From positions 1 to 34,107 of the forward strand of contig CAZBBK010000064.1 in the NCBI GenBank assembly GCA_964490075.1: DNA of 34,107 bases. The letters are read 5' to 3'. This document shows, one piece after another, positions 249-34,043 of the stretch (the first letter of the stretch is position 1; every line of letters begins with the position of its first letter). The notes under the pieces were generated by a model. It worked only from the letters and a program-made list of their open reading frames with translations, was not told the origin of the DNA and searched no databases. The stretch is from an uncultured Gemmatimonadota bacterium. Lineage in GTDB: Bacteria; GCA-2686955. The translations under genes were made by a program, and so were the position numbers.

Positions 249-253
249 TCGCG

Positions 254-1909: not shown

Positions 1910-1931
1910 CCCCAAGCGCTTTCCGCCGTAC

Positions 1932-8382: not shown

Positions 8383-8385
8383 CGG

Positions 8386-12859: not shown

Positions 12860-12892
12860 GGCGAAGCTCCTCCCCTCGTTGGTGGGGCGTTT

Positions 12893-15447: not shown

Positions 15448-15696
15448 CGTCTTCCTCTCGGCGCGGGGGCGCGAAAGGGAATGTGCTGCTTCTGACCGTG
15501 TCGATCGACCGCAATCGCGGTCTCTTGATCCTGGCGCGCGAGCCGCTCCGACGACATCGAAGCGGTGCTTTCTGGCCCAACGCGGCGCCCTCTGGGCGTA
15601 TCTTCTAGCGGTCGTCGCAAAGCCCCACCCGCGCGCAGCGCTGGAGTCGCCGCCGCGCGCCGCGGGGAGCGCTCGACGCCCTTCGTTGGAGGCAAC

Positions 15697-16860: not shown

Positions 16861-17834
16861 CCCAACCCCCCGCCGCCGCCGCCGGGCGCCGCGGGAGTCG
16901 CCACGGCTACCTGCGAGTCGTCGTCGCCCTGGCGCTCTTGGCCTTGGCCTGGTCGCGAATCCAGCCCGAGGCGGTGCTCGCCGCGCTCACCCACGCCTCG
17001 CCCGGGCCGCTCCTGCTCTCCTTCGCGCTGCTCATCGTCGAACGGGTCGGCACCGTCGCCAAGTGGGTCGTGCTGCTGCGGGCCCGAGGTTGGGACCGGC
17101 CCCATCGCGATGCCTTCATTATCTTCTGGGGCAACAACTTCTTCGGTCTCTTCCTGCCGACCGGCCTGGGACTCGACGTTCTGAATGCCTATCGAACCCA
17201 TCGTGCGGGCATGCGGCTCGCGGACAGCACGTCGGTCGTCACCGTCGATCGTGCCCTGAGCCTGGTCTCCCTCGCCTGCCTGGTGGCCTGTTCCTGGGTC
17301 TTGACCACCCACTTCCGTGTGGAGCTGACCGGGGCGGTGATCACGCTGGGGGTGGCGACCGCGGCGGCGCTGCTCTTTCTGGCCTTCCCGGCGAAAGCCA
17401 TTGTTCTGGAAGGGGTTTCGCGCTTTCGCGTCGGCGCGGCGCTGGCCCATCGACTGGAGTCCTTTCACACCGCAGTGGTGGCATTTCGCAGCGATCGCGG
17501 CGCCTTGGCGTTGAACTTCGCGCTCTCGATCCTGGTTCAGCTGCTGCGGGTGCTGCAGTTGGCGGTCCTGATCCGCGCCCTCGGTCCTGGCATCGGCTGG
17601 CGCAACGCGATGGTGGTGGTGCCCGCGTGCAACGTCGTCACCGCGCTTCCGGTGTCGATCGGAGGCGGTCTCGGGCTCCGGGAAAACGCCTTTCTCTACT
17701 TCTTCCCGCGCATCGGCGTGCCGGAAGAGGACGCGATGGCTCTCTCGGTTCTGGTGCTGGCGTGGGTGGTGATCTGGGTGCTGCCGGGCGGGCTCTACGC
17801 GCTCTTTCGCAAGGACGGGACCTGGCGCCGATAA
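16857..17834 (+). CDS. UPF0104 / lysylphosphatidylglycerol-synthase-TM (flippase-like) membrane protein
   Basis: KWVVLL, FFGLFLPTGLGLDV, S-VTVDR, LPVSIGGGLGLRE motifs and multiple TM helices. Confidence 0.9.
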   Translation: MTQPPAAAAGRRGSRHGYLRVVVALALLALAWSRIQPEAVLAALTHASPGPLLLSFALLIVERVGTVAKWVVLLRARGWDRPHRDAFIIFWGNNFFGLFLPTGLGLDVLNAYRTHRAGMRLADSTSVVTVDRALSLVSLACLVACSWVLTTHFRVELTGAVITLGVATAAALLFLAFPAKAIVLEGVSRFRVGAALAHRLESFHTAVVAFRSDRGALALNFALSILVQLLRVLQLAVLIRALGPGIGWRNAMVVVPACNVVTALPVSIGGGLGLRENAFLYFFPRIGVPEEDAMALSVLVLAWVVIWVLPGGLYALFRKDGTWRR

Positions 17835-18646: not shown

Positions 18647-20296
18647 TCAAGGACCAGTTTGGGACTGTTTTTCGGAATCAGGGCCGGGCACGGGTCGAGG
18701 TTCGGGGAAGAACTGCTCCCTGAGCCTGGCGATGGTTCGCCGGCATTCGGCCATCCGTGCCTCCAGCCCCACGCGATAGCGCCAGGCGTGTTGGTCGAGC
18801 GTGTGGTTGGGGCGTGAGATCTCCCGCTGCAGCTCCTCGAGGTAGCCCTCGCTCAGATCGAGATAGTGACGCGCTGTCTTGGGATTGTGGAATCCAGAGC
18901 CATCCACGCCGACATAGACCGGTGTCGTATGCGCGACCTGCCTCTCCCCGGCCTGCGCCCGAGCAGCGATCCACAGCCCATGTTCCACCGGCAGCGTCAT
19001 TTCGGCGGCTAGCTCGTTCGACGACTGACCCGGCTCATTCGACATGGCACGCTCGAGAACTTCGCCGTGGACTACCAGCTCCAGTTTCGTGAGCGGCAAT
19101 TGTTCCTCGCATCCGAACGCACGAGCCGCGATGTTCAACGTCGACCCAGTTGTCACTTCCAGGTCGTCGCCGGGGATCGCACCGTTCACGTTCAGCTCGA
19201 CGATCGGGCCATTGCTGACGAAGGTGTGCCCGGCTTCGACGCTTCCGCGCCAGTTCTCGAAACTGAAGTCGTCCTCCACGTAGGTGTAGAATCGAGTCTC
19301 CCCCACGTGCTCGGCCCAAGGATAGTCCGAGCCGGCGGTAGCCGTCAGTTTGAATCCCAGGTCGAGGAAATGGTAGTAGTGGGCGGTGTCCATTCCACCG
19401 TTCTGGAGGATCTCGAGGAAGTCCACCCTGTTCCTCAGAACATCCAGCGTCAAGCCTCGGTAGCCGTGGAATTGTACTGCTTTGTGTGCGTACCCGACGA
19501 TCCCACCCCGCTGGTGCACCGAATCAAACACTCGATCGTAGTGGTAGTACTTGTCTTTGAACCGGACGAACGAATCGGCGCCGAGCGAAATGGCATGACC
19601 GAGCTCTTGCGTCCGGGGCTCCTCCTGCCCGGACGCCAGCAGATGATTCCCGTCCTGGTACACCCCGTCTCGCCCCCACATCTGCTGCCAGTAGTAAACC
19701 TGCCAGAAATCACCCATCTGTAAGATCATGCCGGCGTGAATATCCTCGGCCGCGATCAAGGTGAGAAGAGGCGGATTCTCTCGCGGGGAGCGTTGGAGAT
19801 GAATATGATCATCCGCGGAGTACCAGCCTCGCTCCGGCATGTTGATCCAACGCTCGAGCGAAAATGTCTGCGACAGTTTCGCGCCGGGCTCGAGGCTCAG
19901 CTCGTGTAGCTGGCGCAGATACTCGTTGCCCTTCGATAGCGACAGTTTGTAGGTGCCGGGTTTCAGCTCGACCTCGAAGGCACCATCAACATAAAAAGAG
20001 CCGTCGACCAATGCGCCGAGCTTCCGGGGTGAGAACATGAGCCCGATCGCGGACTCCGGCGGCGCAACGACCGCGCCCCTTGCCTTCCAGAGACGGACTC
20101 GAACCGGGGTCGGCGCGCCGGTCACTCCATCGACGATCGTGGCCGAAAGCCGGGCCGGGGCGTCGGCCGTCGAGCCCACCGGCGGCACCGGTTGCGCCGG
20201 CGCTCGAGCGAAGGAGGAACCGGTCGCTCCGAGGACCGTCACCAGAGCCAGGGCAGAGGCGGCCAGGCGGACGCGGCCGAACGCCAGGAGCATCAT
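18647..20296 (-). CDS. exported CehA/McbA-family (PHP-fold) metallohydrolase
   Basis: GWYSADDHIH, GQE, GH, GYAH, TATAGSDYP and GHTFVSNGP motifs, plus the AHTTPVYV C-terminal strand. Signal-peptide-like N-terminus. Start uncertain (ATG 20296 or 20293). Confidence 0.85.
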   Translation of the reverse strand: MMLLAFGRVRLAASALALVTVLGATGSSFARAPAQPVPPVGSTADAPARLSATIVDGVTGAPTPVRVRLWKARGAVVAPPESAIGLMFSPRKLGALVDGSFYVDGAFEVELKPGTYKLSLSKGNEYLRQLHELSLEPGAKLSQTFSLERWINMPERGWYSADDHIHLQRSPRENPPLLTLIAAEDIHAGMILQMGDFWQVYYWQQMWGRDGVYQDGNHLLASGQEEPRTQELGHAISLGADSFVRFKDKYYHYDRVFDSVHQRGGIVGYAHKAVQFHGYRGLTLDVLRNRVDFLEILQNGGMDTAHYYHFLDLGFKLTATAGSDYPWAEHVGETRFYTYVEDDFSFENWRGSVEAGHTFVSNGPIVELNVNGAIPGDDLEVTTGSTLNIAARAFGCEEQLPLTKLELVVHGEVLERAMSNEPGQSSNELAAEMTLPVEHGLWIAARAQAGERQVAHTTPVYVGVDGSGFHNPKTARHYLDLSEGYLEELQREISRPNHTLDQHAWRYRVGLEARMAECRRTIARLREQFFPEPRPVPGPDSEKQSQTGP

Positions 20297-20358
20297 GGCG
20301 TCGCGAGCACTAGAGAGGACGACTTTGGGAACAACGCACCTCCGGCACGAGAAGATCT

Positions 20359-21213
20359 CTAGGGTACACTGGCCGGAAGCAGCGCGAACACGAAGGTGAT
20401 CGTGCCGCGATCCTGGCGGCCGGCCTGGGCGGCGAAGCGCCACTGCCGCAGCGCGTCGATGGCGGCCTCCTCGAACACCGGCTCCACGCGGGTCTCGGGC
20501 ACCACCTCTCCGACCGAGCCGTCGGTCCGCACCAGAAAACGCAGGCGGACGCGCTCCGAGCGCCGGGCGGCGTCAGGGAATCGGGGCACCACGCGGCGCA
20601 CGATCTGCCGGTGCGCCGCCGGCCCTTCCAGGAGCATCCCGGATGCGGCGGCCTGAGTCTCCGCGACGGCCTCCACCTCGGGCAAGGCCGGAAGAGCGCG
20701 ACCGACCGGCCCGCCGCCGCGCCGCGGCCGCAGCAGGTCGCCGCGCGGAGCGGGCCGCCGTGGCGTGATCTTGGCCAGGCCGGCGGGGAGCGAGGGCGGG
20801 GGAGACGCCACGGGCGGCACCAGGTCCTCGTCGGGCGCGGCAGCGACTCGAGGAAGCTCGGGCCGCCTGGTGATCGGTGCTCCGACCCGAGGCAGCTCTC
20901 CGGGCGACAAGGGCAGGGGACGCGGATCGAGGGGCACGATCGGCTCCGCCGGGCGCTCGGCTTCCACCTGCTCCTCGGGATCGGGCTCGATCACTCGCTC
21001 CGGCGTTGGCGGGCGACCGAGCAGGGTCTCTCCGGACCTGAGATCGAGAGCCACCTCGACCGCCGGCTGCTCCGGGAGCACCGGATCCAAGGCGACCTGC
21101 CACCACCATGCTCCGGTGAAGAGCAGAAGCTGAATCAGCAGCGTCCAGCCGATGGCGTTGGTCCAGGAGCTGGAATCGCGTCCCGGATGAGCTCGGCTCT
21201 CGTCTCCCGGCAT
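20359..21213 (-). CDS. tonB: energy transducer TonB-family protein
   Basis: Single N-terminal TM, long Pro/Glu-rich linker, C-terminal TonB_C pattern (PRFP...VRLRFLVRTDGSV...FEEAAIDALRQWRF...GTITFVF). Confidence 0.9.
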   Translation of the reverse strand: MPGDESRAHPGRDSSSWTNAIGWTLLIQLLLFTGAWWWQVALDPVLPEQPAVEVALDLRSGETLLGRPPTPERVIEPDPEEQVEAERPAEPIVPLDPRPLPLSPGELPRVGAPITRRPELPRVAAAPDEDLVPPVASPPPSLPAGLAKITPRRPAPRGDLLRPRRGGGPVGRALPALPEVEAVAETQAAASGMLLEGPAAHRQIVRRVVPRFPDAARRSERVRLRFLVRTDGSVGEVVPETRVEPVFEEAAIDALRQWRFAAQAGRQDRGTITFVFALLPASVP

Positions 21214-21215
21214 CG

Positions 21216-21632
21216 CTAGCGAATGCCCTCGGGCGCTTCGGTGGCGATCACCAGGCGCTCGACGCCTTGCTGGCGCGCCTGGTCGAGCACCGAAACCGCG
21301 TGCTTGAGCGCGATCTCCCGATCGGCTTCGAGCACCACGGTCGGCTCCGCCCCCCCCTCGAGACGGCGGAGCAGCGCCGCCCCGATCTGCTCGAAGCGCT
21401 CCACGCGGACCTGGTCGACATAGATCTCGCCCGTGGCGCTCAAGGTCACCGTGATCGGCGAGCTGGTGGTCTCTTCGGTCGCTTCACCGGCCGGCAGACG
21501 GATCTTCAGACCGGGCCGGAGCACGAAGCTCGACGAGAGCAGGAAGAAGATCAGCAGCAGGAGCACGATGTCGGTCAACGAGGCATAGCCGATGCCGGTG
21601 ACGTAGCGCCTCTTCGGGGGTCGAACCTGCAT
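21216..21632 (-). CDS. exbD: ExbD/TolR biopolymer transport protein
   Basis: SLTDIVLLLLIFFLL TM with the conserved Asp, and V-LEADR periplasmic motif. The true start is ATG 21632, overlapping the exbB stop (TGATG). Confidence 0.93.
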   Translation of the reverse strand: MQVRPPKRRYVTGIGYASLTDIVLLLLIFFLLSSSFVLRPGLKIRLPAGEATEETTSSPITVTLSATGEIYVDQVRVERFEQIGAALLRRLEGGAEPTVVLEADREIALKHAVSVLDQARQQGVERLVIATEAPEGIR

Positions 21633-22246
21633 CAGGATGCCTCGCCGGCATCCAGCAGGCGTTCCGCGGAGCGTCCCAGGAGCACTGCCTGGCTGTCGAT
21701 GCGCGCCGCCAGCAGGTTGTGCAGCACCAGGGCGATGATCCCGACGGCGAGGCCGGCGCCCGTGGTGACCAGCGCCTCCCAGATGCCTCCGGCCAGGACC
21801 GCCGGCGTCACCGCCGCTCCCTGCGCCTGCACGTTCATGAAAGCCCGGATCATCCCGGTGACCGTGCCGAGGAATCCCAGCAGCGGGGCGACCGCGGCCA
21901 GAGTCGCGAGCACCGCCATGTTCTGCTGCAGCAGATGGAGCTGCTCCTCTCCGGCCACCACCAGTCGGTCGCGGCGCGCCTCTCTCGTTCCCTGCCCCAG
22001 GCGCAGCGCCGCCAGGGCTACGGCTTGCAGCGAGAGGGGAAGCTGACCGACCAGGGGTCCGGCGCTCTCCGCGCCACCGCGCCGCAGATGCTCCAAGAGG
22101 CGCTCGAGGTCCTCCGAGGGACGCCCCGACCCCAGTCGCCGGAAAGTCAGCACGCGCTCCAGGGCGAGAGCGAGCGCCGAAAGGAAGCAGACGTAGATCG
22201 GCCACATCATCCAGCCGCCTCGGGAGAGAATCTCCAGCACCGTCAT
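21632..22246 (-). CDS. exbB: MotA/TolQ/ExbB proton channel protein
   Basis: GGWMMWPI, APLLGFLGTVTGMI-AF, GIWEALVTTGAGL. GGAGG SD before ATG 22246; ATGA overlap with the upstream gene. Confidence 0.95.
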   Translation of the reverse strand: MTVLEILSRGGWMMWPIYVCFLSALALALERVLTFRRLGSGRPSEDLERLLEHLRRGGAESAGPLVGQLPLSLQAVALAALRLGQGTREARRDRLVVAGEEQLHLLQQNMAVLATLAAVAPLLGFLGTVTGMIRAFMNVQAQGAAVTPAVLAGGIWEALVTTGAGLAVGIIALVLHNLLAARIDSQAVLLGRSAERLLDAGEAS

Positions 22247-23808
22247 CGCTGATCCTCCGTGATCCAGGACGCCACGCGCGGCAGACGACCAAGGGTCTCG
22301 TGCCACGAGCGTCTCAAAGACAAGCGGATCGACGTTCCTTCCTCGTCGTACCCGCGCCAGACGACCCAGCGCTCATTCAGGAGATTGACCGCCTCGATCG
22401 CCACACTCAGCTCCCCAAAGAGCGTCAGGGCCACAGCGGCGTCGATCGTGATCCATCCGGCCAGCTCGTCGCCTTCTCCGATCGCCTGGTCCGACGCTCC
22501 CCGTACCGCCCCTTCCAGGCGCAGCGGGCCGGCCCCGGTGGTCGCGCTGCCGCGCCACGCCCACGGCGCTCGATAGGGGAGATCGCCGCCCCCGTCGGCC
22601 CACGCGCGCTCCCCCCAGCATCCGAGCGCGAGTCCATCCCCCAGCTCCCAATCCCCGGTCAGCGTCGCGACTCGCGAATCGGCGATTCCGGAGCGCAGAA
22701 GCCCCTCGGCGCCGGCGTCCTCCACCCAGATCACGTCGTCGAGCCGCCGCTCGAAAGAGAGCGCGAGATGCCGCGATCCCTTGCCGTTCAGGCTCACGAA
22801 AACCGCCGGGACTTTGCGCCTCAGGGTCGGCTGCACGCTGCCCCCGCTGATCGGCGCCGGAGCTCGCGACCACCATTCGAGGCCCAGTGGCTCCACCTCG
22901 GCCGACACCCCGACACTCAGGACGAGATCGGGCCGCGCGACGGCATCGATCGCACCCAGAAGCGTGAAGGCGCCCTCGTAGGTCTCACCGATCGACGCCG
23001 CCAACCCCCCGAGCCCCAGGCGGAAGGTCAGGTCTCGATCGGTGGGCCTGGCCAGCTCGGTCCAGAGCTCGACCACCGACAGCTCCGGCTCCACCGCGAT
23101 GCTGCTACCGAGCAGCGCTCGGGCGCCCGAAAGGTCCCCGGTCCATTCACCGAGCAGCTGCCCGAACGCGCCAGATTGCTCACCGGCGGCCATCTCTCCC
23201 CGCAGATCGACGCGCGCCCAACCGACTCGCAGCGCGGCCCGCCGCGTCCAACGCCCCGCGTTCGAGTCGGCAAAGAGCAAGGATGCGACCGCGCTCCGGC
23301 GCTCGTCCGTGGCGCTCACCGGCGCCCCCCAGAGCGCACGCCGCCAACGATGAAATCGCGACTCGAGGGACCAGCGAGGCGTCAGCCCGAAAGTGGCCTG
23401 CCCTTCGATCGCGCTGTGACGCCGGGAGTTGAAGCCCCTTGCCACGGCGTGCAGCTCGCGCCGGCCCTGCGCCAGGCGCGCCGCCGCCCCCGCCTCGCGC
23501 CAATCGTGGTTGCCCCCGGCGCAGAGCGCGGAGATCCGGAATGCCGGCGCATCGACCTCGGGCGACTCGGGCGTCCACACAGAGGGGGCGGGTCGACCGT
23601 CGGCGGTCGATCTCTGCCCGCGCACCACCGACATGGGGACCTCGGGAGGCTCGGTGCGCGCCGGATCACGGGCGCTCGCCGGTCGCTCCGGCTGGTCGAT
23701 CCCTTCGACGACCACCTCGGGCAGGTCGAGCTGCGGCTCCTCCGCGACCACCTCGAAGGCAGAGAGGGCGGCGGCAAGGAATCCGCTGGCCAAGGGGAAC
23801 AACCTCAT
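22243..23808 (-). CDS. outer-membrane beta-barrel, short TonB-dependent-receptor-like protein (521 aa)
   Basis: Signal peptide MRLFPLASGFLAAALSA, TonB-box-like EVVVEG, amphipathic beta-strands, and a TBDR-type end (LPYRAP...NLLNERW-VW-GY...IRLSLRRSW). ATG 23808 overlaps the TPR gene stop (ATGA). Confidence 0.8.
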   Translation of the reverse strand: MRLFPLASGFLAAALSAFEVVAEEPQLDLPEVVVEGIDQPERPASARDPARTEPPEVPMSVVRGQRSTADGRPAPSVWTPESPEVDAPAFRISALCAGGNHDWREAGAAARLAQGRRELHAVARGFNSRRHSAIEGQATFGLTPRWSLESRFHRWRRALWGAPVSATDERRSAVASLLFADSNAGRWTRRAALRVGWARVDLRGEMAAGEQSGAFGQLLGEWTGDLSGARALLGSSIAVEPELSVVELWTELARPTDRDLTFRLGLGGLAASIGETYEGAFTLLGAIDAVARPDLVLSVGVSAEVEPLGLEWWSRAPAPISGGSVQPTLRRKVPAVFVSLNGKGSRHLALSFERRLDDVIWVEDAGAEGLLRSGIADSRVATLTGDWELGDGLALGCWGERAWADGGGDLPYRAPWAWRGSATTGAGPLRLEGAVRGASDQAIGEGDELAGWITIDAAVALTLFGELSVAIEAVNLLNERWVVWRGYDEEGTSIRLSLRRSWHETLGRLPRVASWITEDQR

Positions 23809-26714
23809 GGCCCGAGCTCCTCCAGCCGGGCAGTCGCATCGAGCCCCGGCGGATCGGTGGCGTCGGCGGCGATGATCTCGCTGTAGAGCTTCTTCGCGTC
23901 TTCGAGAGCTCCCTTTCCTTCGTAGCACTGCGCCGCCGCCAGCTCGCCGCGCCGGACCCAGAAGATCTCGGCCGGGTGGACGTAGCGGATCTTCAGGAAC
24001 AGGCGCAGCGCATCGCCGATCGCGCCTTCCTGGTAGCGCAGCTCCGCGTTGCGATAGAGCGCCTCGGCCGCGACCGCGGGTGGCGCTTCGGTCGCGGCCT
24101 CCTCCAGCGCCGCGCGCCCCCCCAGGGTGTCGCCCTCCACCCGGGCGATCAACGCCAGCGCGACGAACGACCGCCACCGAACCAACTGCTGATCGGGCGC
24201 GGTCGATTCCGCCAGCGGCTGCAGCAGCCGGCGCGCTTCGGCATTCTGCCCAACCCCGGCGTGGGCGAGGCCCAGCAGCAGTCGATCTTGCGAGTCGCGA
24301 GGCGGGACCCCGCTCATCAGCTCCAGGGCGCGCTCGGGCTCGCCCCTCGCGACGGCCTCCTCCGCCAGCAGCAGCCGCGCCGCGCGAGCGCGCGGATGAT
24401 CGACATGCTGGTCGATGAGCGTTCGCCAGGCGGCATTTTCCCGCTCCGGCTGCAACAAGCCGAGCGCATAGAGCGCCTCCGCGGCCTGATCGCTGCGTGG
24501 ATAGGCCGATGCCAGGGCGCCGAGCCGGTTGCGTGCCGCCTCGTCCTCGCCTCGGTCCTGCAGGATGAGCGCCTCGTGGAGCGCGATCTCGGCACCCTGC
24601 TCTCCCGCACCCTCGATCGCTTCGCGGACGATTTCGGGGGCGTCCACCGCCCCTTGCGCCTCGGCCGCGGCCCAGTAGATGCCGCGCACCGCATGCGCCA
24701 CCCTCTCCCCGCGGGGCCAAGATCGAACCACCATGGCATAGGCCTGGGCCGCGGCCTGTGGATCGCCGACGTTGAAGCGACAGTCCCCGACTCGGGCGAT
24801 CGCGTGCTCGGCGATCGACGAAGCGTCGGCGGCATCGGCGGCGGCGAGGTAGAGCGACTCGGCGGCGGCGTAGAGCGGCACGTCGAATCGCGCCTGAGCC
24901 TCGACCAAGAGCGCCTGCGCAATGCGGTCTGCGTGGCCGGATCCACTCTGGCGCGCCGCGCGCGCCGCCGCGGCGGCGGCATCGTGCTTCCCGAGCCGTG
25001 CGAGCGCGCGGGCCCGCCCCAGATGGGCCTCGTAGGCCAGTCGCCCGCGCGGGTCGTGCTGCAGGTAGAGGCCGTAGAGGGTCTCGGCTGCGTCGTCGTC
25101 GCCCATTGCCGTGAACGCATCGCCCATTCGCAGCACCGCCTCCACGCCGCGCGACGAGCTCGGATGCTCCACGGCCAGGCGATCGAACCAGCGCAGGGCG
25201 CCGGGCGCGTCGCCCTGACCCAGCCGGCACCAACCGACTCCGAAGAGCGCCTCGATGAGCAGCTCGTCGGCCCTCGGGCGCTCCTGGTCGGCGAGCGTCA
25301 CGTAGAGCGACTCGGCGGCCGCCAGATCGCCGGCGGCGAGATTCGCCTCCGCCTCCAGCAGTCGATCGCGCGGCCCCTGCGCACCCTCCGCGGCAGCCAG
25401 CACGGCGGCGGCGGGCTCGCCGGCCCTCAGGAGCGCGACGCCCCGACCGTAGAGCGCATCGGCGGCGTCGAGCTCCCCGATCTCGGCCGCCTCGATCGCC
25501 GCGGCGTAGGCCTGCGCCGCGGCGCGCGCGCGGCCGGAAGCCAGCAGGAGCCGGCCGGCCGCCATCTGCGCCGCGTGGATCGTCGCCGGGGCGGCACCGG
25601 CGAGGACCGCCACCTGCTCGAAAAGCGGCAGCGATTCGAGATCGTCGGGGCGCAGCAGACCCAGGCCCAGCAGCGCCCGCGCCCGCTGATCGGGCGATGC
25701 CCTGCCATCGACGCGCCGGAAATGCCGCTCGGCGGCCTCGTTCCTGCCCAGCGCGGCGGCGGCGTCTCCCGCTCCGAGCAAAGCCTCCAGCGCCAAAGCC
25801 CCACCGGCGTCCGCATGGGCCAGCCAGCGGGCCTCGGCGTCGAGGAGTCGCCCCGCGGCGGCCTGGCTCCACGCCAGCGAGTAGGCCGCCTCGCTGGCGG
25901 CTCCGAGCGAATCGACCGCCGCCTCCAGTGCTTCGATCGCCTCGCCATGGCGGCCTTCGCGCAGATAGGCCTCGCCCAGGAGCCAATGCTCCTCGGCGTT
26001 CCGTGCCCCCTGCAGCAAGGCGATCACGCCCTCATGATCGCCCCTTCGCAGCCGGGCCCGCGCCGCCTCGGTCCGTGCCAGCGAGCGAAGCTCGGCGGGC
26101 ACCCCGTCGGCGCTGAGCAGCGGCTCGAGGGTCTGAACCGCCTGCTCCGGCTGCTCCAGCTGCAGCTGGAACAAGGCCAGATCGTAGCGTGCGTAGCTGG
26201 CCGCGGAATGCTCGGCGAACGAGGAAAGGACCCGCTCCAAGTCGTCCACGCCGCTCTCGACATCGCCCAGCAGTCCGGCGTTGCGCGATCGCCGGAGCAG
26301 GGCGTCGGGGAGCAGATCCGAGCTCGGGAAGCCCTCGATCAATCGTCCGAGGGCAACCACCGCAGCCCGCGAGTCGGCGCGGCGGTGGGCCGCGTCGCCG
26401 ATCCTGAACAGCGCCTGGTCGGCGAAGGTTCCGGCCGGGGAGCGCAGCAGGTACTCCTCGTAGTAAGGGGTAGCGTCCTCGACGCCCTGCTCGCGAACGC
26501 ACTCGGCCAGCAGAAAGGCGGCGTCGGTCGCCGCCGGAGAGCCGGCGTCACCGACCTGCACCAGCTCGAGCTCCCTGATCGCCAGCTCGTAGAGCCCGTC
26601 GGCCATGAACCCGCGCGCCGCATCCAGCCTCGAGTCGGATCGCCGGGCCGCTCCGGTTGCCGCACCGGCGGCAAGCCACATCCCGACAAAGATCTCCAGC
26701 GCGCGCATCCGCAT
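23805..26714 (-). CDS. large exported tetratricopeptide-repeat protein (BamD/CpoB-like repeats), about 969 aa
   Basis: Signal peptide and GGAGG SD (ATG 26714 or 26708). Many TPR units with (Y/F/H)P-S-x-x-A-x-x-A linkers, e.g. EGFPSSDLLPDAL, EHPSSSRGVEAV, AYPRSDQAAEAL. Confidence 0.9.
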   Translation of the reverse strand: MRMRALEIFVGMWLAAGAATGAARRSDSRLDAARGFMADGLYELAIRELELVQVGDAGSPAATDAAFLLAECVREQGVEDATPYYEEYLLRSPAGTFADQALFRIGDAAHRRADSRAAVVALGRLIEGFPSSDLLPDALLRRSRNAGLLGDVESGVDDLERVLSSFAEHSAASYARYDLALFQLQLEQPEQAVQTLEPLLSADGVPAELRSLARTEAARARLRRGDHEGVIALLQGARNAEEHWLLGEAYLREGRHGEAIEALEAAVDSLGAASEAAYSLAWSQAAAGRLLDAEARWLAHADAGGALALEALLGAGDAAAALGRNEAAERHFRRVDGRASPDQRARALLGLGLLRPDDLESLPLFEQVAVLAGAAPATIHAAQMAAGRLLLASGRARAAAQAYAAAIEAAEIGELDAADALYGRGVALLRAGEPAAAVLAAAEGAQGPRDRLLEAEANLAAGDLAAAESLYVTLADQERPRADELLIEALFGVGWCRLGQGDAPGALRWFDRLAVEHPSSSRGVEAVLRMGDAFTAMGDDDAAETLYGLYLQHDPRGRLAYEAHLGRARALARLGKHDAAAAAARAARQSGSGHADRIAQALLVEAQARFDVPLYAAAESLYLAAADAADASSIAEHAIARVGDCRFNVGDPQAAAQAYAMVVRSWPRGERVAHAVRGIYWAAAEAQGAVDAPEIVREAIEGAGEQGAEIALHEALILQDRGEDEAARNRLGALASAYPRSDQAAEALYALGLLQPERENAAWRTLIDQHVDHPRARAARLLLAEEAVARGEPERALELMSGVPPRDSQDRLLLGLAHAGVGQNAEARRLLQPLAESTAPDQQLVRWRSFVALALIARVEGDTLGGRAALEEAATEAPPAVAAEALYRNAELRYQEGAIGDALRLFLKIRYVHPAEIFWVRRGELAAAQCYEGKGALEDAKKLYSEIIAADATDPPGLDATARLEELGP

Positions 26715-26915
26715 TGCCCCTCCGCTGACTCGCGTGGCACTCGGTTTCGGTGATTGGATCGACGGAGCAGCGCGCGCTCGGCGACGTCGCGTGCGGTCCA
26801 CTCGGCTGCCCCGGGCATCATACGGGGTCAGGAGTCCGCGGTTCCAATCGAAGTGGACGCGCGGTGGGGCCCTGACGGAGCACGCGATCGGCGCAGCAGG
26901 CTCCCGGGCGACGCG

Positions 26916-27086
26916 CTAACGGGTCTCGGCGGCCACGGCCACCGGCTCGGCGGCGGCGGCGGCGGCGACTCGGTGCACGGTCACGAAACCAGAAACCAGG
27001 ATGACGATGGAGACGATGATCGCGGACAAGAGAATCGACTTCCCGAGCAGGAGTGAGATTTCTCGTTGTTCGATCGCATCCGGCAT
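26916..27086 (-). CDS. small single-TM hypothetical protein (56 aa)
   Basis: GGAGGT SD 7 nt upstream of ATG 27086 (MPDAIEQ...), one long hydrophobic helix (SILLSAIIVSIVILVSGFVTV), Ala-rich tail. Confidence 0.65.
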   Translation of the reverse strand: MPDAIEQREISLLLGKSILLSAIIVSIVILVSGFVTVHRVAAAAAAEPVAVAAETR

Positions 27087-27226
27087 TTCGTGGACCTCCA
27101 TCGCGCGTGGCGCTGCTCTCGTCTCAGATATCGGCGCCGCCAGCTCTCCCCTTGAGGACTGCGAAATCTTTGTAAGTGATTATCGCTATGCTGGATAGAG
27201 ATCAAACAAGTCGTGCGGCGGGAGGA

Positions 27227-28246
27227 TCAGAACGCCGCCCAGTCGGCGCGTTCGTGCACTGCCCAGTGGGCTTCCAGGACCAGCACGCCGCCATCGGCGT
27301 AGACCGGGGATTCCGCGCCGAATTGCGCCTCGTCGACTTCGCTGACCGGCATCGGAAAGTGCATCCGGCCGAAATGGACCGTGCTGTCGGCCTCCGCCAG
27401 GCGCACGAAGAGAGCCTGGTCGTTCGCCACCACGAGGGTGTCGACCAGCGCCCCCCATCCGCCGGTATCGGTGCTCCAGCCCAGCGGGCGATCGAGACAG
27501 GCGGCCTCCGCGCAGAGCTCGGTGCGGATTTCGACCGATCCACCCTCGATCTCACCGGGAGCGACGGCCACCGAGATCTGCCACTCGCCGGCGATCTCCT
27601 CGGCCAGCAGAGAAAGCCAGATCACGGGGCCGGGACTCAAGAACTGCTCGTCCGGCGCGTGGCGAAGATCGAGGGGGAAGCTCAGCCAGCTCGGCTTGAT
27701 CTGCACGTTTGCGCCGACCTCCCAACCGACCTGGAACTGAGTGTCGTAGCTCCTGTGCGGCACGACCGTGACCAGCGGCGTCGCGACGCTGTGCGCTCCG
27801 TCGTCGCTGCGGGTGATCATCGCGTAGCGATAGATCCGGTCGTTGGTGACCGGGGCGTCGGTGTGAGTACGGGTCTCTATGCTCAAGCGCCGGGCGAAGA
27901 GCAGAGTGTCCTCGAAGGTCTGGAAAGAGAGGGAGTCCTGGCGTAGAAAGCCCTCGACCTCCCGGCTGCCGAGCAGCGCCTCGAGCTCGAGCGAATCGAG
28001 GTCGACCGAAGGCGTGCGCAAAAGGGTGTACCCGCCCTGCTCTCCCACCGGTCCGTCTGCCCCGATGTCGCTCCGTTCCGCCTCGCTCGGTGACGCGGTC
28101 CAGGTAACCGCGACGCTGCCGTCTCCCGGAGCTACCTGCACCGAGGCCGGAGGCATCAGTGCGGGCATCAGGTCGACGATATCGCTGCACGCGATCAACA
28201 CGGTGCCCGCCAAAGCGGCGGTCAGAACGGAACGCGGGACTTTCAC
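27227..28246 (-). CDS. hypothetical lipoprotein with FN3-like N-terminal domain
   Basis: GTG 28246 (GAGGT SD) begins K-PR plus a hydrophobic stretch and lipobox LIAC. PPASVQVAPGDGSVAVTWTAS and D--VTNDRIYRYAM are FN3-like patterns. Confidence 0.8.
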   Translation of the reverse strand: MKVPRSVLTAALAGTVLIACSDIVDLMPALMPPASVQVAPGDGSVAVTWTASPSEAERSDIGADGPVGEQGGYTLLRTPSVDLDSLELEALLGSREVEGFLRQDSLSFQTFEDTLLFARRLSIETRTHTDAPVTNDRIYRYAMITRSDDGAHSVATPLVTVVPHRSYDTQFQVGWEVGANVQIKPSWLSFPLDLRHAPDEQFLSPGPVIWLSLLAEEIAGEWQISVAVAPGEIEGGSVEIRTELCAEAACLDRPLGWSTDTGGWGALVDTLVVANDQALFVRLAEADSTVHFGRMHFPMPVSEVDEAQFGAESPVYADGGVLVLEAHWAVHERADWAAF

Positions 28247-28302
28247 GGGAACCTCGGGGTGGACAGGGGATTGGCGCTCATGCGTTGTTGCCGCGGTCGC
28301 CG

Positions 28303-28311
28303 AGCTTACCA
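28303..28311 (-). promoter_or_regulatory. candidate extended -10 promoter of the lipoprotein gene
   Basis: Minus strand reads TGGTAAGCT (TG-n-TAAGCT) in the intergenic gap. Confidence 0.35.
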
Positions 28312-28339
28312 CGCACCCGATGGTCGCTTCGCCGGCTAC

Positions 28340-29392
28340 CTATGCGGCGGAGCGCGTCGACCTCGCCCCTGCGGCCGGCGTGACCGCCACCACGGGAGCG
28401 TCGTCCGGATAAGGAACCGAACCCAGGCGCAGGCCGATCACCACCAACACCGATCCAGCGGCGAGCGCGGGCAGGAAAGCGATTCCACCGGCCATGCGCA
28501 GTGTGGCCAGCGCACAGATCCCCAACACCGATGCCAGCAGATACTGGAACATCACCACTTCGCGATCGGTCAGCCCAAGACCCTGCAGCCGGTAGGTGAG
28601 ATTCGACTTGTCGGGCAGGTAGACCGGCCGCCCGCGCTTGGTGCGCAGCACTACGGCCAGCGTGGTGTCGAAGATCGGAACGCCGAGGATCATCGGCAAG
28701 GCACTGAGCTGGGCCATCGACCCGTCGAGATGGCGTGCCTGCAAGAGCGCGATCGCACCGAGCGAGAAGCCGAGGAAGAGGGTTCCGGTGTCGCCCAGAA
28801 AAATCGATGCCGGCTTGGAGTTGTAGCGCAGGAAGCCGCAACAGGCGCCGGCGATGGCCAGGGCGAAAATTCCGGCCGGTGTGGTCGGCTCGATCAGGAA
28901 GAGCAGCGTGCCTCCGATGAAGGCCACGCCCGAAGTCGCACCGTCGATGTTGTCCATCAGATTCAGCGCGTTGGTGACCCCGACCAACCAGAGCACCATC
29001 AGCGGAACCGCGATCCAGTGCTCGGACAGGCCGGGAATACGCACATCCGCAACGACGATGAAGGCGATGCCGGCCAGCGCCTGGACCAGGATGCGGGGTT
29101 TCCAATCGAGGACCACGACATCGTCCAGGAGTCCGAGCGCCAGCATTCCGGCCGCCGCCCCGAGCAAGGTGGCGATCTCCGCGTCGAGAAGACCGGCGAC
29201 CGACACGGCCAGGACGCTCGCACCGAACACCGCGATCCCTCCGCCGAGAGGCGTGGGAATGCGGTGGATCTTGCCGGGGTTGGTCGGGTTCGGCGCGTCC
29301 ACGAGATTGACGCGCCACATCAGCGAGCGCACCAGGGGGGTGAGCTGATGAGCGATGAGCAAAGCGGCGAGGAATGCGATGGACTGAGTCAT
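28340..29392 (-). CDS. MraY/WecA-family polyprenyl-phosphate N-acetylhexosamine-1-phosphate transferase
   Basis: KIH--PTPLGGG, GLLDD, NALNLMDNIDG, GFLRYN-KPASIFLGDTG, PIFDT. WecA/TagO-like rather than true MraY. Start placed at ATG 29392. Confidence 0.92.
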   Translation of the reverse strand: MTQSIAFLAALLIAHQLTPLVRSLMWRVNLVDAPNPTNPGKIHRIPTPLGGGIAVFGASVLAVSVAGLLDAEIATLLGAAAGMLALGLLDDVVVLDWKPRILVQALAGIAFIVVADVRIPGLSEHWIAVPLMVLWLVGVTNALNLMDNIDGATSGVAFIGGTLLFLIEPTTPAGIFALAIAGACCGFLRYNSKPASIFLGDTGTLFLGFSLGAIALLQARHLDGSMAQLSALPMILGVPIFDTTLAVVLRTKRGRPVYLPDKSNLTYRLQGLGLTDREVVMFQYLLASVLGICALATLRMAGGIAFLPALAAGSVLVVIGLRLGSVPYPDDAPVVAVTPAAGARSTRSAA

Positions 29393-29420
29393 GCGAAGCT
29401 GGGGTGCGAAAAATCGCGGC

Positions 29421-29450
29421 ACCCTATCAGAGCGTTCCGACGGGCGTCAA
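29421..29450 (-). promoter_or_regulatory. candidate sigma-70 promoter of the WecA-like gene
   Basis: Minus strand TTGACG, 18-nt spacer, TAGGGT, with an extended -10 TG. Confidence 0.5.
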
Positions 29451-29466
29451 CGAATGCCGGGAACAT

Positions 29467-29482
29467 TGCAAGAGCCCTGCCA
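29467..29482 (-). promoter_or_regulatory. sigma-54 (-24/-12) promoter upstream of the WecA-like gene
   Basis: Minus strand TGGCAGGGCTCTTGCA, one mismatch from TGGCAC-N5-TTGCA, with exact GG-N10-GC spacing. Confidence 0.75.
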
Positions 29483-29533
29483 CGCGGCAATTGCCTTCAG
29501 GACACCGCTTCTCGCGCTCAGGGGCACTCCAAC

Positions 29534-29574
29534 TGTCCCCTGATGGAGACAGCCGATGTCCCCCCCAGGGGACC
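29534..29574. promoter_or_regulatory. twin 18-bp palindromic operator / enhancer-like sites, TGTC-N10-GAC(A/C)
   Basis: TGTCCCCTGATGGAGACA (29534-29551) and TGTCCCCCCCAGGGGACC (29557-29574), 23 bp apart start to start and upstream of the sigma-54 site. Confidence 0.6.
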
Positions 29575-29582
29575 GCGCGCGA

Positions 29583-32513
29583 TCAGTCTTCCTCGATCAG
29601 GCCGAAGCGGACCAGCTTCTTGCGCAGGTTGCCGCGGCTGAAACGCAGTCCCTTGGCCATGGCGCCGATATCGTGCCGATAGAAGAGCAGCGCCTGCTCC
29701 AGGGCATCGTGCTCGACCGCCTCCAGGAAGGACCGGTAGCTCAGATCACCGCGCAGCGCCTCTTCCAGGAGCTCGTCGCGAGCGCCCGCGGCGCCCGCAG
29801 AGTGGCGCTCGCCGGAGGGAGCCGCGCGCAGCTCGCCGATGTCTTCGAGCGCGTCCTGGAGCTCCTGCTTGGATCGGGCCAGCGTTTGCTCGCTCTGCGC
29901 CGACTTGATGCGCACCGCGCGCAGACGCAGCTCGCGTACGATCGAAGGCATGGACGCATCGACCATCAGGCGCAAAATCTCCAGCTCGTGATTGGCCGGA
30001 CTCTGCCCCTTCTGGAACCACAGGATCATCGCGCCGGAGTAGCGTTCCGCGCTCGGGATCGGGAATCCCAGGGCACAGTCCTCTCCGGGGCCGTTGAGCC
30101 GATCGCGGCCATCCAAGGGCACCTCCTGGCCCTCTTTCGCCACTTCGCGAATCAACTTCCGGATCGGCTCGGTCTTCGACTTCTCGCGCCCCGGCAGGCT
30201 GCGTCCCTTGAAGTACTCGAAGGCATCTTCGCGCTCTGAGTCGATGATCCCGACCGCTCCCATGCGCGCCCGGATGATCTTGATCGCCGAGGAGAGCAGC
30301 TCGCCCGCGACAGCCGGTGCGTCGTCCTTGGTCGCGATGTCGACGATCTTCCGGACCCGCTCGCAAGCTTCGTTGCTCTGCTCGATCTCCTCGATCGATG
30401 CCGGAGGATTGTCTTCGTAGAGATCGAAGATCGACGCCGAGAGACGGCCGATCTCGTTGTAGCGCGGCCCGGTGTCGGCGTCGGCATCGGCGTTCTTGCG
30501 CAAGAAGTCCAGGAATCCCTCGTGGCTGGCGGTCTTTAGATGTGCCAGAGGAGTCTGGTAGGGACGCGACGAAAGGAAAGCCACGACGCGGTCGCGGTAA
30601 GGCTCGAAACGCCGGCGCAGGAAGGACTCGCGGCTCTTGCGATCCTGGAAGCGGCCCAGGAGCTGGTCGAGGATCGTGGTCGCTTCGCCGATGCGGACGA
30701 ACGCGTCCTCGTGGCGGCCCTCGGCGAGGTAGACCCGCCCCAACGCGTGGTAGCCGCGCCAGACCAGGTCGGGGACCTCGATGAACTCCAGGAGTCGGAG
30801 CGCCATCTTCACGCCGACCGCCGCGCGCGCTCGCGCGTCGGGTGCGGTCTGGTCGAGCAGCCCGAGCGCGTAGTCGACCCGCGAGCGGGCGATCAGCACG
30901 CGGTTGCGGGTGCGCTCGGCATGCTTCAGACTGCGCTCGAGAGGCTCCAGGGCCACCTTGGAGTGACCGATCAGCCGGTAGCAGACCCCCAGCTCGCGCA
31001 GCGCCAACGCCGCGTCGGTGTCGCAAAGCTCGGTTTCGGTCAGCGACTCGAGCGCTTCGATCGCGTCTCCGTTTTGCCCTTTGAGTGACATCATTCGGGC
31101 CCGCAGCAGGCGCTGACCCGCTTCGTCTCGAGCCTCTTTGGGCAACGATCCGAGCGCGTTCCCGAGGCGGTCGGCGTCTCCCCGGTCGGCATAGACGCGG
31201 CCCCGAGCCAGGGCCACCTCGATCAACGCGCGCTGCCGGCCCTGCTCCCGCGCCAGCACCTGGGCGCGATCGAGAAATGTGTCGCTCTTGGCGAACTGGG
31301 AGCGGTGGTGGAACGCAGTCCCCAGGCAGAGAGCGGCTTCGCGCTCCCCCTCGACGTAGGCGCGATTGCGATGGATATCGAGCGCCTCTTGGAGCGGCGC
31401 GATCGCGCGATCGAAGTCGCTCAGAACCAGCAGCGCCCGCCCGCGGAGCAGCGCCGCTCGAGCCCGGTCCACGGGATCCTCGAGAGTCTCGGCGAGTGTG
31501 GCCAGGTGCTTCAGAGTGTCGGCGGCCGTGCCCTCCAGCAGCGCCAGCTCGGCGTTCACCAGGGCCCGGCGCATCTGCTGCTCAGCCGAGGAGGGGCTCG
31601 AGAAGGCGTCCACTTCGACCAGCAGCTCCTTGACTCGGGCGATGTCGCCTTCCGCCAAAGAGCACTCCGCCGCGACCAGGTGCGCGAGCGGATCACCACC
31701 CTCGGTCGATACCCGCTCCGAGCCGATGATCGGCTCGAGCAGGGCGCGCGCCTCGCCCAGGTGGGAGAGACGCTGGTTGGCGATCGCCCCCCTGATGCGG
31801 AAGCGCTCCTCGAAGCGCTGCGCAGGGGCCTCGCCCTGGTACTCGCCGTCCACGCCCTCGCGGGCCAAACGCGCCGCGCTCTCGCTGTCTCCCCGGCGCA
31901 GCGCCTCTTCCACCAGTGTGAGGAGCTCTTCCGCGCTCTCTTCTCCCGAGCGGGTTCGGCGCCGGTCGCGACGCTCGAGCCCTTTGCGACGGGACGCGCG
32001 GTTGCCCTTCGCGTCGTCGACCGACTCCCGCTCGGTCTCCGGCTCGGGCACCGCCTCGTCGCTGCTCGGAGGAGGCGGCTCCGCCGGCCGCGGGGAATCG
32101 TCTCGCGCGGGCTCTCCGTCGGCGGGGGCGCCCGGCAGCTCGCCCGCCATCTGCTCGAGCTCGGCGCGTTCGTCCTCCGCGATGCCGCCCACCAGATCGC
32201 CTCTCAGCTTGGTGTCGGCGATCTCGTAGACCGCCGCGAGATCGCTCTCGTCGCTGCGCGTGAGCAGACCGCGCTCCACCAGGTCACTGAGGAAGTAGCG
32301 CCAGTTCCTTCCTTTGTAGTCGAGCGCGTCCTTCAACTCGTCGCCGCGACTTCCTCGCCCCAGCACGGCCAACATCTCCAGGATCCTGCGCTTGATCCCC
32401 TTCACGGGCAATGCCGCGCGATCCTCCGTTCCCACGCTCTCATCGCGTGGACCTGTTGTCGGCTCCACAGCCAATCTCCTTCCACGACGCGAGGGCCCGT
32501 CGGGCCCGTCCAT
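29583..32513 (-). CDS. 976-aa putative transcriptional regulator: winged helix, TPR array, GAF-like domain, coiled coil, Fis-type HTH
   Basis: The C-terminus (FLEAVEHDALEQAL...DIGAMAKGLRFSRGNLRKKLVRFGL) is Fis/NtrC-type HTH. Central MalT-like TPRs, GAF-like segment (LLSSAIKIIRARMGAV...CALGFPI...GAMILW), N-terminal wHTH (ILEMLAVLGR...LSDLVERGLL). Start uncertain. Confidence 0.8.
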   Translation of the reverse strand: MDGPDGPSRRGRRLAVEPTTGPRDESVGTEDRAALPVKGIKRRILEMLAVLGRGSRGDELKDALDYKGRNWRYFLSDLVERGLLTRSDESDLAAVYEIADTKLRGDLVGGIAEDERAELEQMAGELPGAPADGEPARDDSPRPAEPPPPSSDEAVPEPETERESVDDAKGNRASRRKGLERRDRRRTRSGEESAEELLTLVEEALRRGDSESAARLAREGVDGEYQGEAPAQRFEERFRIRGAIANQRLSHLGEARALLEPIIGSERVSTEGGDPLAHLVAAECSLAEGDIARVKELLVEVDAFSSPSSAEQQMRRALVNAELALLEGTAADTLKHLATLAETLEDPVDRARAALLRGRALLVLSDFDRAIAPLQEALDIHRNRAYVEGEREAALCLGTAFHHRSQFAKSDTFLDRAQVLAREQGRQRALIEVALARGRVYADRGDADRLGNALGSLPKEARDEAGQRLLRARMMSLKGQNGDAIEALESLTETELCDTDAALALRELGVCYRLIGHSKVALEPLERSLKHAERTRNRVLIARSRVDYALGLLDQTAPDARARAAVGVKMALRLLEFIEVPDLVWRGYHALGRVYLAEGRHEDAFVRIGEATTILDQLLGRFQDRKSRESFLRRRFEPYRDRVVAFLSSRPYQTPLAHLKTASHEGFLDFLRKNADADADTGPRYNEIGRLSASIFDLYEDNPPASIEEIEQSNEACERVRKIVDIATKDDAPAVAGELLSSAIKIIRARMGAVGIIDSEREDAFEYFKGRSLPGREKSKTEPIRKLIREVAKEGQEVPLDGRDRLNGPGEDCALGFPIPSAERYSGAMILWFQKGQSPANHELEILRLMVDASMPSIVRELRLRAVRIKSAQSEQTLARSKQELQDALEDIGELRAAPSGERHSAGAAGARDELLEEALRGDLSYRSFLEAVEHDALEQALLFYRHDIGAMAKGLRFSRGNLRKKLVRFGLIEED

Positions 32514-32546
32514 CGCTTGTCAGTCGTCTTTCGTCGTGGTGGCGGA

Positions 32547-33596: not shown

Positions 33597-33742
33597 GAGA
33601 TGGAGCGGCGTCGCATCGGGGCCGGCGCGGCCACGCCCCTTCGCGAAAAAACGGGCTACCGATGCGCCCGAACGCGAGCCCGTCCCCCGGGGGCCGATCG
33701 AGCCGGCGGCTCGGGTCGGGCAGGCCCGGGGCGGACCCGGGC

Positions 33743-33772
33743 AGTATACGTAGTGCGCCCCTGCGGCTTCAA
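33743..33772 (-). promoter_or_regulatory. candidate sigma-70 promoter of the diguanylate cyclase / regulator pair
   Basis: Minus strand TTGAAG (33772-33767), 18-nt spacer, TATACT (33748-33743). Confidence 0.55.
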
Positions 33773-34043
33773 TGGCGCAGGTGGGCACCTGGCGTTTCGA
33801 TATAGCGCGGCAGGCGAAGCGCCCTGCCGTCTCATTGACGAGGAGTCTGCCAGCTCTGCGCGCGATCGAGTGGCCCCCGGGCGGTGGTAACCGGGGACTT
33901 CGGCCGCGGAGATGGGTGTTGCGACCGAGATTTGGCCGCAACGCGTGACCGCGGCGGCGGAGATCGGGGGAACGACCGCTCATCGACCTCGGCTCGCGGC
34001 TTTGGTCGCGCTGGCGCGACGCGGCTCCGTTCCGGGCCCCTGA

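Follow-up and report, generated by a model that had tools for sequence, protein, structure and literature searches.

Classical TonB-dependent transporters (TBDTs) such as BtuB, FhuA and FepA have a 22-strand barrel in the outer membrane, a plug domain and an N-terminal TonB box, and they are served by the ExbB, ExbD and TonB proteins of the Ton system. Here we describe an operon from an uncultured Gemmatimonadota bacterium (assembly GCA_964490075.1, contig CAZBBK010000064.1) that appears to combine a plug-less barrel of this kind with a motor of its own and a giant tetratricopeptide repeat (TPR) protein. The whole stretch analysed, 34,107 nucleotides of the contig, is called the window below. 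With the classical TBDTs the barrel shares the predicted 22-strand fold, an N-terminal TonB-box-like peptide and, at the corresponding part of the C-terminus, a weak likeness in sequence, and the ExbB, ExbD and TonB_C families of the classical Ton system are all found in the operon. It differs from them in having no plug and no match to the PF00593 and PF07715 models, in its size (521 aa, compared with the 614-774-aa precursors of five E. coli TBDT genes), in its very short predicted surface loops and in the translational coupling of its gene to its own motor genes and to a giant TPR gene.

Several described systems come close to this operon in one respect or another. What is said of each, above all of what it lacks, applies to the passages of the cited publications that were consulted. 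Shortened barrels of the TBDT fold with a small plug or none, as here, are known from Bacteroidota as the lidless 'Type S' barrels, which escape both the barrel and the plug models of Pfam (bioRxiv 10.1101/2025.11.13.688124). These are encoded in carbohydrate-utilisation clusters beside carbohydrate-active enzymes (CAZymes) and serve the uptake of short sugars, and no dedicated motor or TPR partner is described for them, whereas the barrel presented here carries a conserved tether with a TonB-box-like motif and is encoded with a motor and a TPR protein but without CAZymes. A phmmer pass detected no kinship in sequence between the two. A Ton operon including a TPR protein essential for function, TtpD2, is known from the Vibrio TonB2 system, TtpB-TtpC-ExbB-ExbD-TonB2-TtpD (PMC6957404). 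However, TtpD2 has 425 aa and is encoded last, while the TPR protein of the Gemmatimonadota operon has 969 aa and is encoded first. In addition, TtpB and TtpC have no counterpart in the latter, in which there is a single MotA_ExbB protein, and the Vibrio operon encodes no receptor, while the operon here encodes the barrel.

The Tol-Pal system with CpoB is similar in having a motor of the same superfamily and TPR repeats of the CpoB/YbgF type, but the operon described here has no TolB or Pal, its transducer domain is of the TonB type and its outer-membrane partner is an integral barrel. The Agl-Glt/Nfs core complex (aglRQS with gltD, E, G and C), whose function outside the myxobacteria is given as unknown, is likewise a trans-envelope assembly, in which a motor resembling TolQR and a transducer resembling TonB go together with large TPR proteins that are exported (PMC3169522). 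In that complex there are two TolR-like subunits, GltG bears an FHA domain, the TPR proteins are several and the barrels are small and unlike TBDTs, whereas here there is one ExbD, no FHA domain and one barrel of the TBDT fold; the Glt TPR proteins were compared by their description. In Fibrobacter, the TPR genes FSU_2397 and FSU_2398 are situated near an ExbB-ExbD-ExbD-TonB operon, FSU_2400-2403 (PMC6851124), and our guess is that this cluster may be a core complex of the Agl-Glt type. A precedent for a TonB-type barrel working outwards is Oar, a TBDT needed for the secretion of the PopC protease in Myxococcus (PMC6434023). Other TPR-associated motor variants, but not the arrangement seen here, are reported in the consulted sections of a recent survey of force-transducer operons (PMC12204202).

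A full-text search of the literature, covering main texts, returned no description of this combination and no paper that connects the Gemmatimonadota with the terms searched. Preprints on a Brachyspira outer-membrane protein and on TonB of P. gingivalis likewise contained nothing relevant to it. The original prediction, made by a model from the letters and their open reading frames (ORFs), had called the operon a candidate undescribed machine and had named an already characterised system as the finding that would speak against it. No characterised system with this make-up was found in the literature searched, which supports the claim for the combination. It is too strong for the parts, each of which has a precedent of its own in the TPR protein of TonB2, in the 'Type S' barrels or in Agl-Glt. 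What is novel here is a Ton system with a receptor minus the plug and plus a giant TPR partner, while the ingredients are individually known.

Taking the simplest account of its parts, we tentatively interpret the operon as a self-contained, atypical Ton-type unit, different from Tol-Pal, with a thread-gated barrel and a TPR adaptor, and give this interpretation a probability of about 0.45. ExbB and ExbD would form a proton-driven motor in the inner membrane, and the TonB-like protein would span the periplasm and capture with its C-terminal domain the conserved TonB-box-like peptide at the start of the barrel protein. Loss of the globular plug from a TBDT ancestor would have left the barrel with a 65-residue Pro-rich thread. 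Pulling the thread, possibly together with the long periplasmic turns, would then open or re-shape the wide 22-strand gate. The periplasmic TPR protein of approximately 940 residues, which is translated just before the barrel, may serve as an adaptor or scaffold on the periplasmic face of the latter.

The window is GC-rich (0.61-0.74 in 2-kb steps) and spurious long ORFs are common because of this, and the frames were picked by codon-position GC. At the third codon position the GC fraction is 0.83-0.88 for all five genes, the barrel frame having 0.83 compared with 0.74 for the long ORF on the opposite strand, and the five frames are coding. The genes follow each other on the minus strand (Table 1), and the junctions, in the order TPR, barrel, exbB, exbD and tonB, are ATGA, ATGA, TGATG and a 2-nt gap. 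Pfam models, scanned against 29 ORFs of the window (10 + 14 + 5), and NCBIfam models together assign families to four of the five operon proteins, the exception being the barrel. Domains of ABC transporters, periplasmic binding proteins, TolB or Pal were found in none of the 29 ORFs. Likewise, TolB (PF07676, PF04052) and OmpA/Pal (PF00691) were absent from the scanned ORFs of both the window and the related locus L002.

Table 1. Genes and protein features of the operon in the window. Coordinates run from the lower to the higher position; E-values follow the Pfam accessions.
Feature	Coordinates	Strand	Length	Remarks
TPR protein gene (exported all-TPR protein)	23805..26714	-	969 aa	Sec-type signal peptide; no lipobox Cys in the window copy
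Barrel gene (outer-membrane beta-barrel)	22243..23808	-	521 aa	predicted TBDT fold, ~22 strands (residues 90-500), no plug domain
exbB (ExbB/TolQ-type proton channel subunit)	21632..22246	-	204 aa	PF01618, 2.1e-26; three hydrophobic segments
exbD (ExbD/TolR-type subunit)	21216..21632	-	138 aa	PF02472, 9.6e-25; one transmembrane helix with Asp
tonB-like gene (TonB-like transducer)	20359..21213	-	284 aa	transmembrane helix without His, Pro-rich linker, TonB C-terminal domain
TonB-box-like motif LDLPEVVVEG	23701..23730	-	barrel residues 27-36	from the translation
Pro-rich N-terminal tether	23545..23739	-	barrel residues 24-88	stands in the plug's place
Conserved C-terminal tail	22246..22308	-	barrel residues 501-521	after the last strand; presumed periplasmic
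Small ORF	26916..27101	-	61 aa	one transmembrane helix; 201 nt upstream of the TPR gene

A genome scan with a 4-row alignment of the barrel (164 pattern matches) located three barrel loci, L001, L002 and L003, all on contigs of metagenome-assembled genomes of Gemmatimonadota, and so far the arrangement is known from only a handful of uncultured members of this phylum. The entire set of TPR, barrel, exbB, exbD and tonB genes is present in L002, while L001 holds the TPR, barrel and exbB genes up to its contig end and L003 the TPR gene and the start of the barrel gene at its contig end. In all three loci the TPR gene is directly upstream of the barrel gene with identical overlaps. Since order and overlaps recur in three of three related loci as far as the contigs extend, the arrangement is more than chance. 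The proteins are conserved to very different degrees, identities to the window being 80-81% for ExbB, 79% for ExbD, 44-59% for the TPR protein, 45% for TonB and 34-46% for the barrel, and judged by these values the barrel is the fastest-evolving member of the operon. Much of the original prediction is borne out at this level: the coordinates, lengths, overlaps and the gap of the five coupled genes agree with it, the family scans return the TPR, ExbB, ExbD and TonB identities that it had given, the transporter, binding protein, TolB and Pal genes that it had not seen are absent from the 29 ORFs, and the gene order that it had expected to be conserved recurs, with the TPR gene beside the barrel gene in all three loci and the full set in one.

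The barrel is the most unusual of the five proteins. None of the nine members of its family matches any Pfam model at E<=10, including PF00593 and PF07715, and no NCBIfam family was assigned to it. The family is very small. Whether run with the single barrel sequence or with a 6-row alignment, word-index searches matched only the window's own gene call of 345 aa. A phmmer search of 1.84 billion cluster representatives gave six proteins at E<=0.001, the window's own gene call included; four of these are complete or almost complete in length (513-535 aa, with 34-45% identity), and the other two are fragments. The pass considered all lengths and yielded no relative that is longer, plugged or fused. 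The sole database copy of the gene, the 345-aa call (P0001), begins at residue 177, so that in the public gene prediction the protein lacks its signal peptide, its tether with the TonB-box-like motif and its first strands.

When the barrel was modelled with AlphaFold2 as a single sequence, the predicted local distance difference test score (pLDDT) was 31.9, and with a 9-row alignment the best model reached a pLDDT of 62 and a predicted template modelling score (pTM) of 0.60, i.e., moderate confidence. In this model, residues 1-88 are disordered (pLDDT <50) and 22 strand segments are assigned by DSSP between residues 90 and 500. The model is confident at approximately residues 170-480, and the first four strands are low, near pLDDT 50. 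Foldseek comparison of the model with the PDB gave 131 matches at E<=1e-3, and among the matches listed all are TBDTs, with TM-scores of 0.36-0.45 on the full query length. The best match is BtuB (3.4e-10), followed by FetA, OprC, YncD, PfeA, FhuA, PqqU and others. An Atlas feature search, giving leads only, placed the barrel next to unnamed clusters of 533-596 aa from Rhodothermota and Spirochaetota, the nearest named clusters carrying PF00593. With moderate confidence, then, the model gives the barrel a TBDT fold without a plug domain.

What stands between the signal peptide and the first strand is a Pro-rich stretch of 65 residues only, and in the model this tether has a pLDDT <50 and no secondary structure up to the first predicted strand at residue 90. 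It contains the TonB-box-like motif, the core of which, LDLP[ED]VV, is kept by all full-length members of the family. In its fuller form, LDLP[ED]VV[VI], it appears to resemble TonB boxes, above all those of the Bacteroidota group. The motif block is the most conserved portion of proteins that are otherwise merely 34-46% identical: no other 20-residue block is as conserved as residues 21-40, where column conservation averages 0.81 compared with 0.61 overall; residues 25-64 have a mean of 0.79 and the strands one of 0.57, and of the 72 invariant columns 18 are located within residues 21-60. A complex prediction of barrel residues 18-95 with TonB residues 190-284, run without controls, scored 0.00 and counts neither way. 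Here, too, the locus agrees with what had been predicted, namely a plug-less TBDT-like barrel whose EVVVEG motif is followed by a Pro-rich linker: the proposed AlphaFold check returned approximately 22 strands and no plug, though at moderate confidence, Foldseek pointed to TBDTs, PF07715 was found in none of the nine members, and the reading as a plugged 22-strand TBDT with a known substrate, which would have spoken against the proposal, was not what emerged.

The sidedness of the loops in the model follows from the assumption that both termini of the barrel are periplasmic, as in known barrels. On this basis the outer loops are very short, with 2-9 residues each and a sum of 47, while the periplasmic turns are long, adding up to 93 residues with one of 24 as the longest. 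The C-terminal tail is also conserved (0.66), with R, L, P, R, A, S, W, E and R invariant in the four full-length rows. In this orientation the conserved features of the barrel, namely its tether, its long turns and its tail, all face the periplasm, where the TPR adaptor would sit. Something would have to close the barrel, because an unplugged 22-strand pore would presumably be harmful, and the thread and the periplasmic turns together may be approximately plug-sized. We lean towards a cargo that is a large solute or an envelope macromolecule handled from the periplasm, rather than a nutrient of the siderophore type. The lack of ABC transporter and binding protein domains in the window was counted in favour of the thread-gated Ton-type unit.

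The motor proteins belong, by their sequences, to the Ton/Tol superfamily, and the scores do not place them clear-cut on either side. Among proteins of the PDB, ExbB is closer to E. coli ExbB (46.5 bits) than to TolQ (38.8 bits), and ExbD closer to ExbD (36.2 bits) than to TolR (23.9 bits). In NCBIfam the preference is slight and reversed, with 63.8 bits for TolQ and 58.3 for ExbB in the case of the former, and 54.7 bits for TolR and 36.7 for ExbD in that of the latter. All of these are below the cut-offs (206.2 for ExbB and 216 for ExbD), those of the ExbB protein far below, and no equivalog-level ExbB or ExbD model of NCBIfam was matched at its cut-off. The transducer, on the other hand, is clearly TonB-like in sequence. 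It matches TonB_C (PF03544) at 1.3e-6 and 29.2 bits (cut-off 24.6), and all 11 matches of its family profile in the PDB are TonB C-terminal domains, with none to TolA. The canonical transmembrane motif of TonB is S-H-L-S. The transmembrane helix at approximately residues 16-38 has no His in the window protein or in its L002 orthologue, while eight of nine more distant relatives (P0008-P0016, 45-47% identical in the C-terminal domain) have the His, the ninth, P0012, being a fragment without the N-terminus.

The exported TPR protein has repeats throughout, and Pfam recognises TPR_16 (1.2e-19), TPR_6, TPR_8 and TPR_19 in it. It scores 105 bits against TIGR02795 (YbgF/CpoB, cut-off 90.1) and 63 bits against BamD TIGR03302, below the cut-off of 81.4. 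The best natural matches of its profile among PDB sequences are CpoB 6g5s (3.2e-5) and YbgF 2xev (5.7e-5), and its only specific likenesses are to repeats of the CpoB/YbgF and BamD types. As the 969-aa protein consists wholly of such repeats, the YbgF/CpoB likeness is one at the level of the repeat and not equivalence. Going by TPR superhelices in general, approximately 27 repeats could span a periplasm. An exported TPR protein with BamD/CpoB-like repeats had been predicted, and the signal peptide and these scores are in line with that. It had also been proposed to bridge motor and barrel; its gene is conserved upstream of the barrel gene in three of three loci, and the bridging itself goes beyond what the data establish.

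The motor and TPR scores also give some support to a Tol-like tether, in which a TolQ-TolR-TolA-like motor would pull on a barrel serving as anchor, with the N-terminal peptide as a TolA box and the CpoB-like TPR protein coordinating it with the cell wall, the purpose being envelope integrity or constriction and not transport. The best NCBIfam models of the two motor proteins are indeed TolQ and TolR, the TPR protein exceeds the YbgF/CpoB cut-off and has CpoB and YbgF as its best natural PDB matches, short outer loops and long periplasmic turns, as modelled, would suit an anchor, and further variants of outer-membrane tethering have been proposed (PMC12204202). However, no TolB or Pal domain was found by the Pfam scans of the window, the TolQ and TolR scores are far below their cut-offs while the solved proteins favour ExbB and ExbD, and the transducer profile matches TonB only and never TolA. 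The YbgF score, moreover, is summed over the repeats of a 969-aa protein, as opposed to the roughly 260 aa of CpoB. Taken together, we regard a Tol-like tether as quite improbable.

The surroundings of the operon look like a surface-glycan or c-di-GMP (cyclic diguanylate) neighbourhood, and neighbours on both sides are common to the window and its relatives. Upstream, at 28340-34043 (-), there are genes for a WecA/MraY-family transferase, a response regulator of the GGDEF (diguanylate cyclase) type and a TPR protein of 976 aa with HTH_8 at its end. Beyond tonB, at 12152-17834, the genes encode GT4 transferases, a HAD hydrolase, a 149-aa acidic protein and a 443-aa protein that matches VWA_3 weakly (E 0.004); the gene of the latter overlaps that of an LPG_synthase_TM protein. 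Such neighbours give some room for a different explanation, namely a split polysaccharide-export pair of the BcsC/PgaA/PelB or AlgK-AlgE kind, i.e., a periplasmic TPR protein and a porin, that merely lies beside Ton genes. The order of TPR and then barrel parallels the arrangement of domains in BcsC and PgaA, and the WecA-like transferase, the GT4 transferases and the diguanylate cyclase are among the conserved neighbours. But among the Foldseek matches listed all are 22-strand TBDTs and none is a 16-18-strand export porin, the TPR protein shows no link to BcsC, PelB, PgaA or AlgK in Pfam, NCBIfam or PDB sequences, and neither a synthase nor a PilZ gene was found in the window. The Ton genes are not mere neighbours either, since the barrel gene overlaps exbB by 4 nt. 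With TBDTs as the structural matches and no matches to such families, an export pair of this kind is unsupported, and we consider it scarcely credible.

The same neighbours could be connected differently, with a TBDT-derived pull-cord barrel, the TonB motor that opens it from inside and a feeding TPR solenoid that spans the periplasm acting as a new kind of outward translocon that exports a surface polymer, glycolipid or protein or inserts it laterally into the outer membrane, the cargo coming from the WecA and glycosyltransferase neighbours under c-di-GMP control. Oar, the barrel that works outwards in Myxococcus, reportedly has a full plug, and we know of no TPR partner or coupled motor for it. 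We consider an outward translocon unlikely.

Proteins of the TBDT fold are overwhelmingly importers, and an alternative to a thread-gated Ton-type unit handling large cargo is that the operon serves ordinary nutrient uptake. The barrel would then be a slimmed TBDT importer with a vestigial plug and its own ExbB-ExbD-TonB, the TPR protein would be an accessory like TtpD, and the solute would be small or medium-sized and perhaps linked to iron. The modelled TBDT fold of the barrel, its TonB-box-like motif and the TonB-type C-terminal domain of the transducer are all compatible with this. Furthermore, the Bacteroidota barrels with small plugs or none escape PF00593 and PF07715 and yet import sugars (bioRxiv 10.1101/2025.11.13.688124), and TtpD2 of the Vibrio tonB2 operon, a TPR protein, is essential for plain iron transport (PMC6957404).

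A connection with iron was also sought in the region upstream of the operon. An AT-rich element at 27172-27190, located approximately 70 nt upstream of the 61-aa ORF and conserved in L001 and L002 but not in L003, resembles weakly the 19-nt Fur-box consensus. It agrees with the consensus at 13 of 19 positions in the window and at 12 of 19 in L001 and L002, and there is no Fur-like match at the corresponding place in L003. A site inside a coding region scores equally, so the match is not significant, and the element was rejected as evidence for a Fur box; the original prediction had seen none. The element may be a promoter or operator.

Other observations speak against ordinary nutrient uptake. 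No inner-membrane transporter, binding protein, catabolic enzyme, extracytoplasmic function (ECF) sigma factor or Fur-type regulator is encoded nearby, and the neighbours are surface-glycan and c-di-GMP genes instead. The predicted surface loops of 2-9 residues leave little room for an external ligand, and the TPR protein, over twice as large as TtpD2, has its gene at the start of the operon and not at the end. We therefore hold nutrient uptake to be possible but rather unlikely. The original prediction had concluded that the complex is neither for classical nutrient uptake nor Tol-Pal; the second half agrees with the absence of TolB and Pal from the window, while the first half was put too strongly, as a role other than uptake is not established.

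Besides the importer precedents and the Fur-like element, several points weigh against the thread-gated Ton-type unit that we prefer. Of the five AlphaFold2 models only one reached pLDDT 62, the rest having 42.9-49.9, and the strand count may err by two, because the first four strands are near pLDDT 50. At the sequence level the kinship of the barrel with TBDTs appears weak, albeit correctly placed. The barrel profile gave weak matches to TbpA among PDB sequences (seven of eight, E 0.045-0.079, the eighth being unrelated), in which the alignment covers the last strands of TbpA, and hhalign against five E. coli TBDTs gave E 0.019 and a probability of 2.4%, with only the last 60 barrel columns aligned, to the C-terminal end of the TBDT alignment. 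The coupling of transducer and motor may differ from the usual one, because the transmembrane helix lacks the canonical His. Finally, the conserved gene order is weak evidence of functional linkage, as all relatives are close kin from one phylum.

The unit itself may be larger than five genes. In the 512-nt gap that precedes the TPR gene the 61-aa ORF stands out as the sole conserved block, and tblastn found it at the same place in L001, L002 and L003 with 84%, 77% and 57% identity, respectively. Pfam gave nothing meaningful for it, but this membrane ORF may be the sixth gene of the unit. Rfam gave no match at gathering scores in the whole window and none in 26600-27400 at E<=1, so there is no riboswitch pointing to the cargo. 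Within 20000-27400 no sigma-70-like promoter was found, and the four terminator-like sites in it (1.9 expected) are all located within genes.

Between the WecA-like gene and the operon there is a 361-aa ORF (27227-28312, minus strand) with the lipobox L-I-A-C and an Fn3-like start, for which Pfam gave no family. A conserved copy exists in L002 and at the L001 edge but not in L003, and in the Atlas the ORF falls next to clusters from Krumholzibacteriota, Gemmatimonadota and WOR-3 that are either unnamed or of the fn3 type. This Fn3-like lipoprotein could be a partner of the barrel. On the other side, tonB is followed on the same strand by a gene for an exported metallohydrolase of the CehA/McbA family (18647-20443, minus strand; NF038032, 1.3e-59), which is probably an insertion outside the unit, since it is missing at this place in L002. 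The remaining part of the window includes an apparently unrelated Mrp/Mnh-type Na+/H+ antiporter cluster at 4195-11920 (+), with MnhE, MnhB/MbhE and three Proton_antipo_M proteins, an 834-aa ORF without a Pfam family at 1731-4235 (+), and a calcineurin-like or purple-acid-type phosphoesterase at 2-1909 (+), which runs off the start of the window.

Systems of this kind will be missed by automatic annotation, because the family escapes the domain models and the public gene call is shortened to 345 aa. To our knowledge, TonB works in every studied case by unfolding the plug. Here there is no plug, yet a strongly conserved tether, a dedicated motor and a giant TPR partner are present, and one may ask what work the force would do. 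A gate acting outwards or in envelope assembly would provide an additional passage through the outer membrane that is powered by protons. An importer would show how far the TBDT design can be stripped and would extend the finding of small plugs beyond the Bacteroidota.

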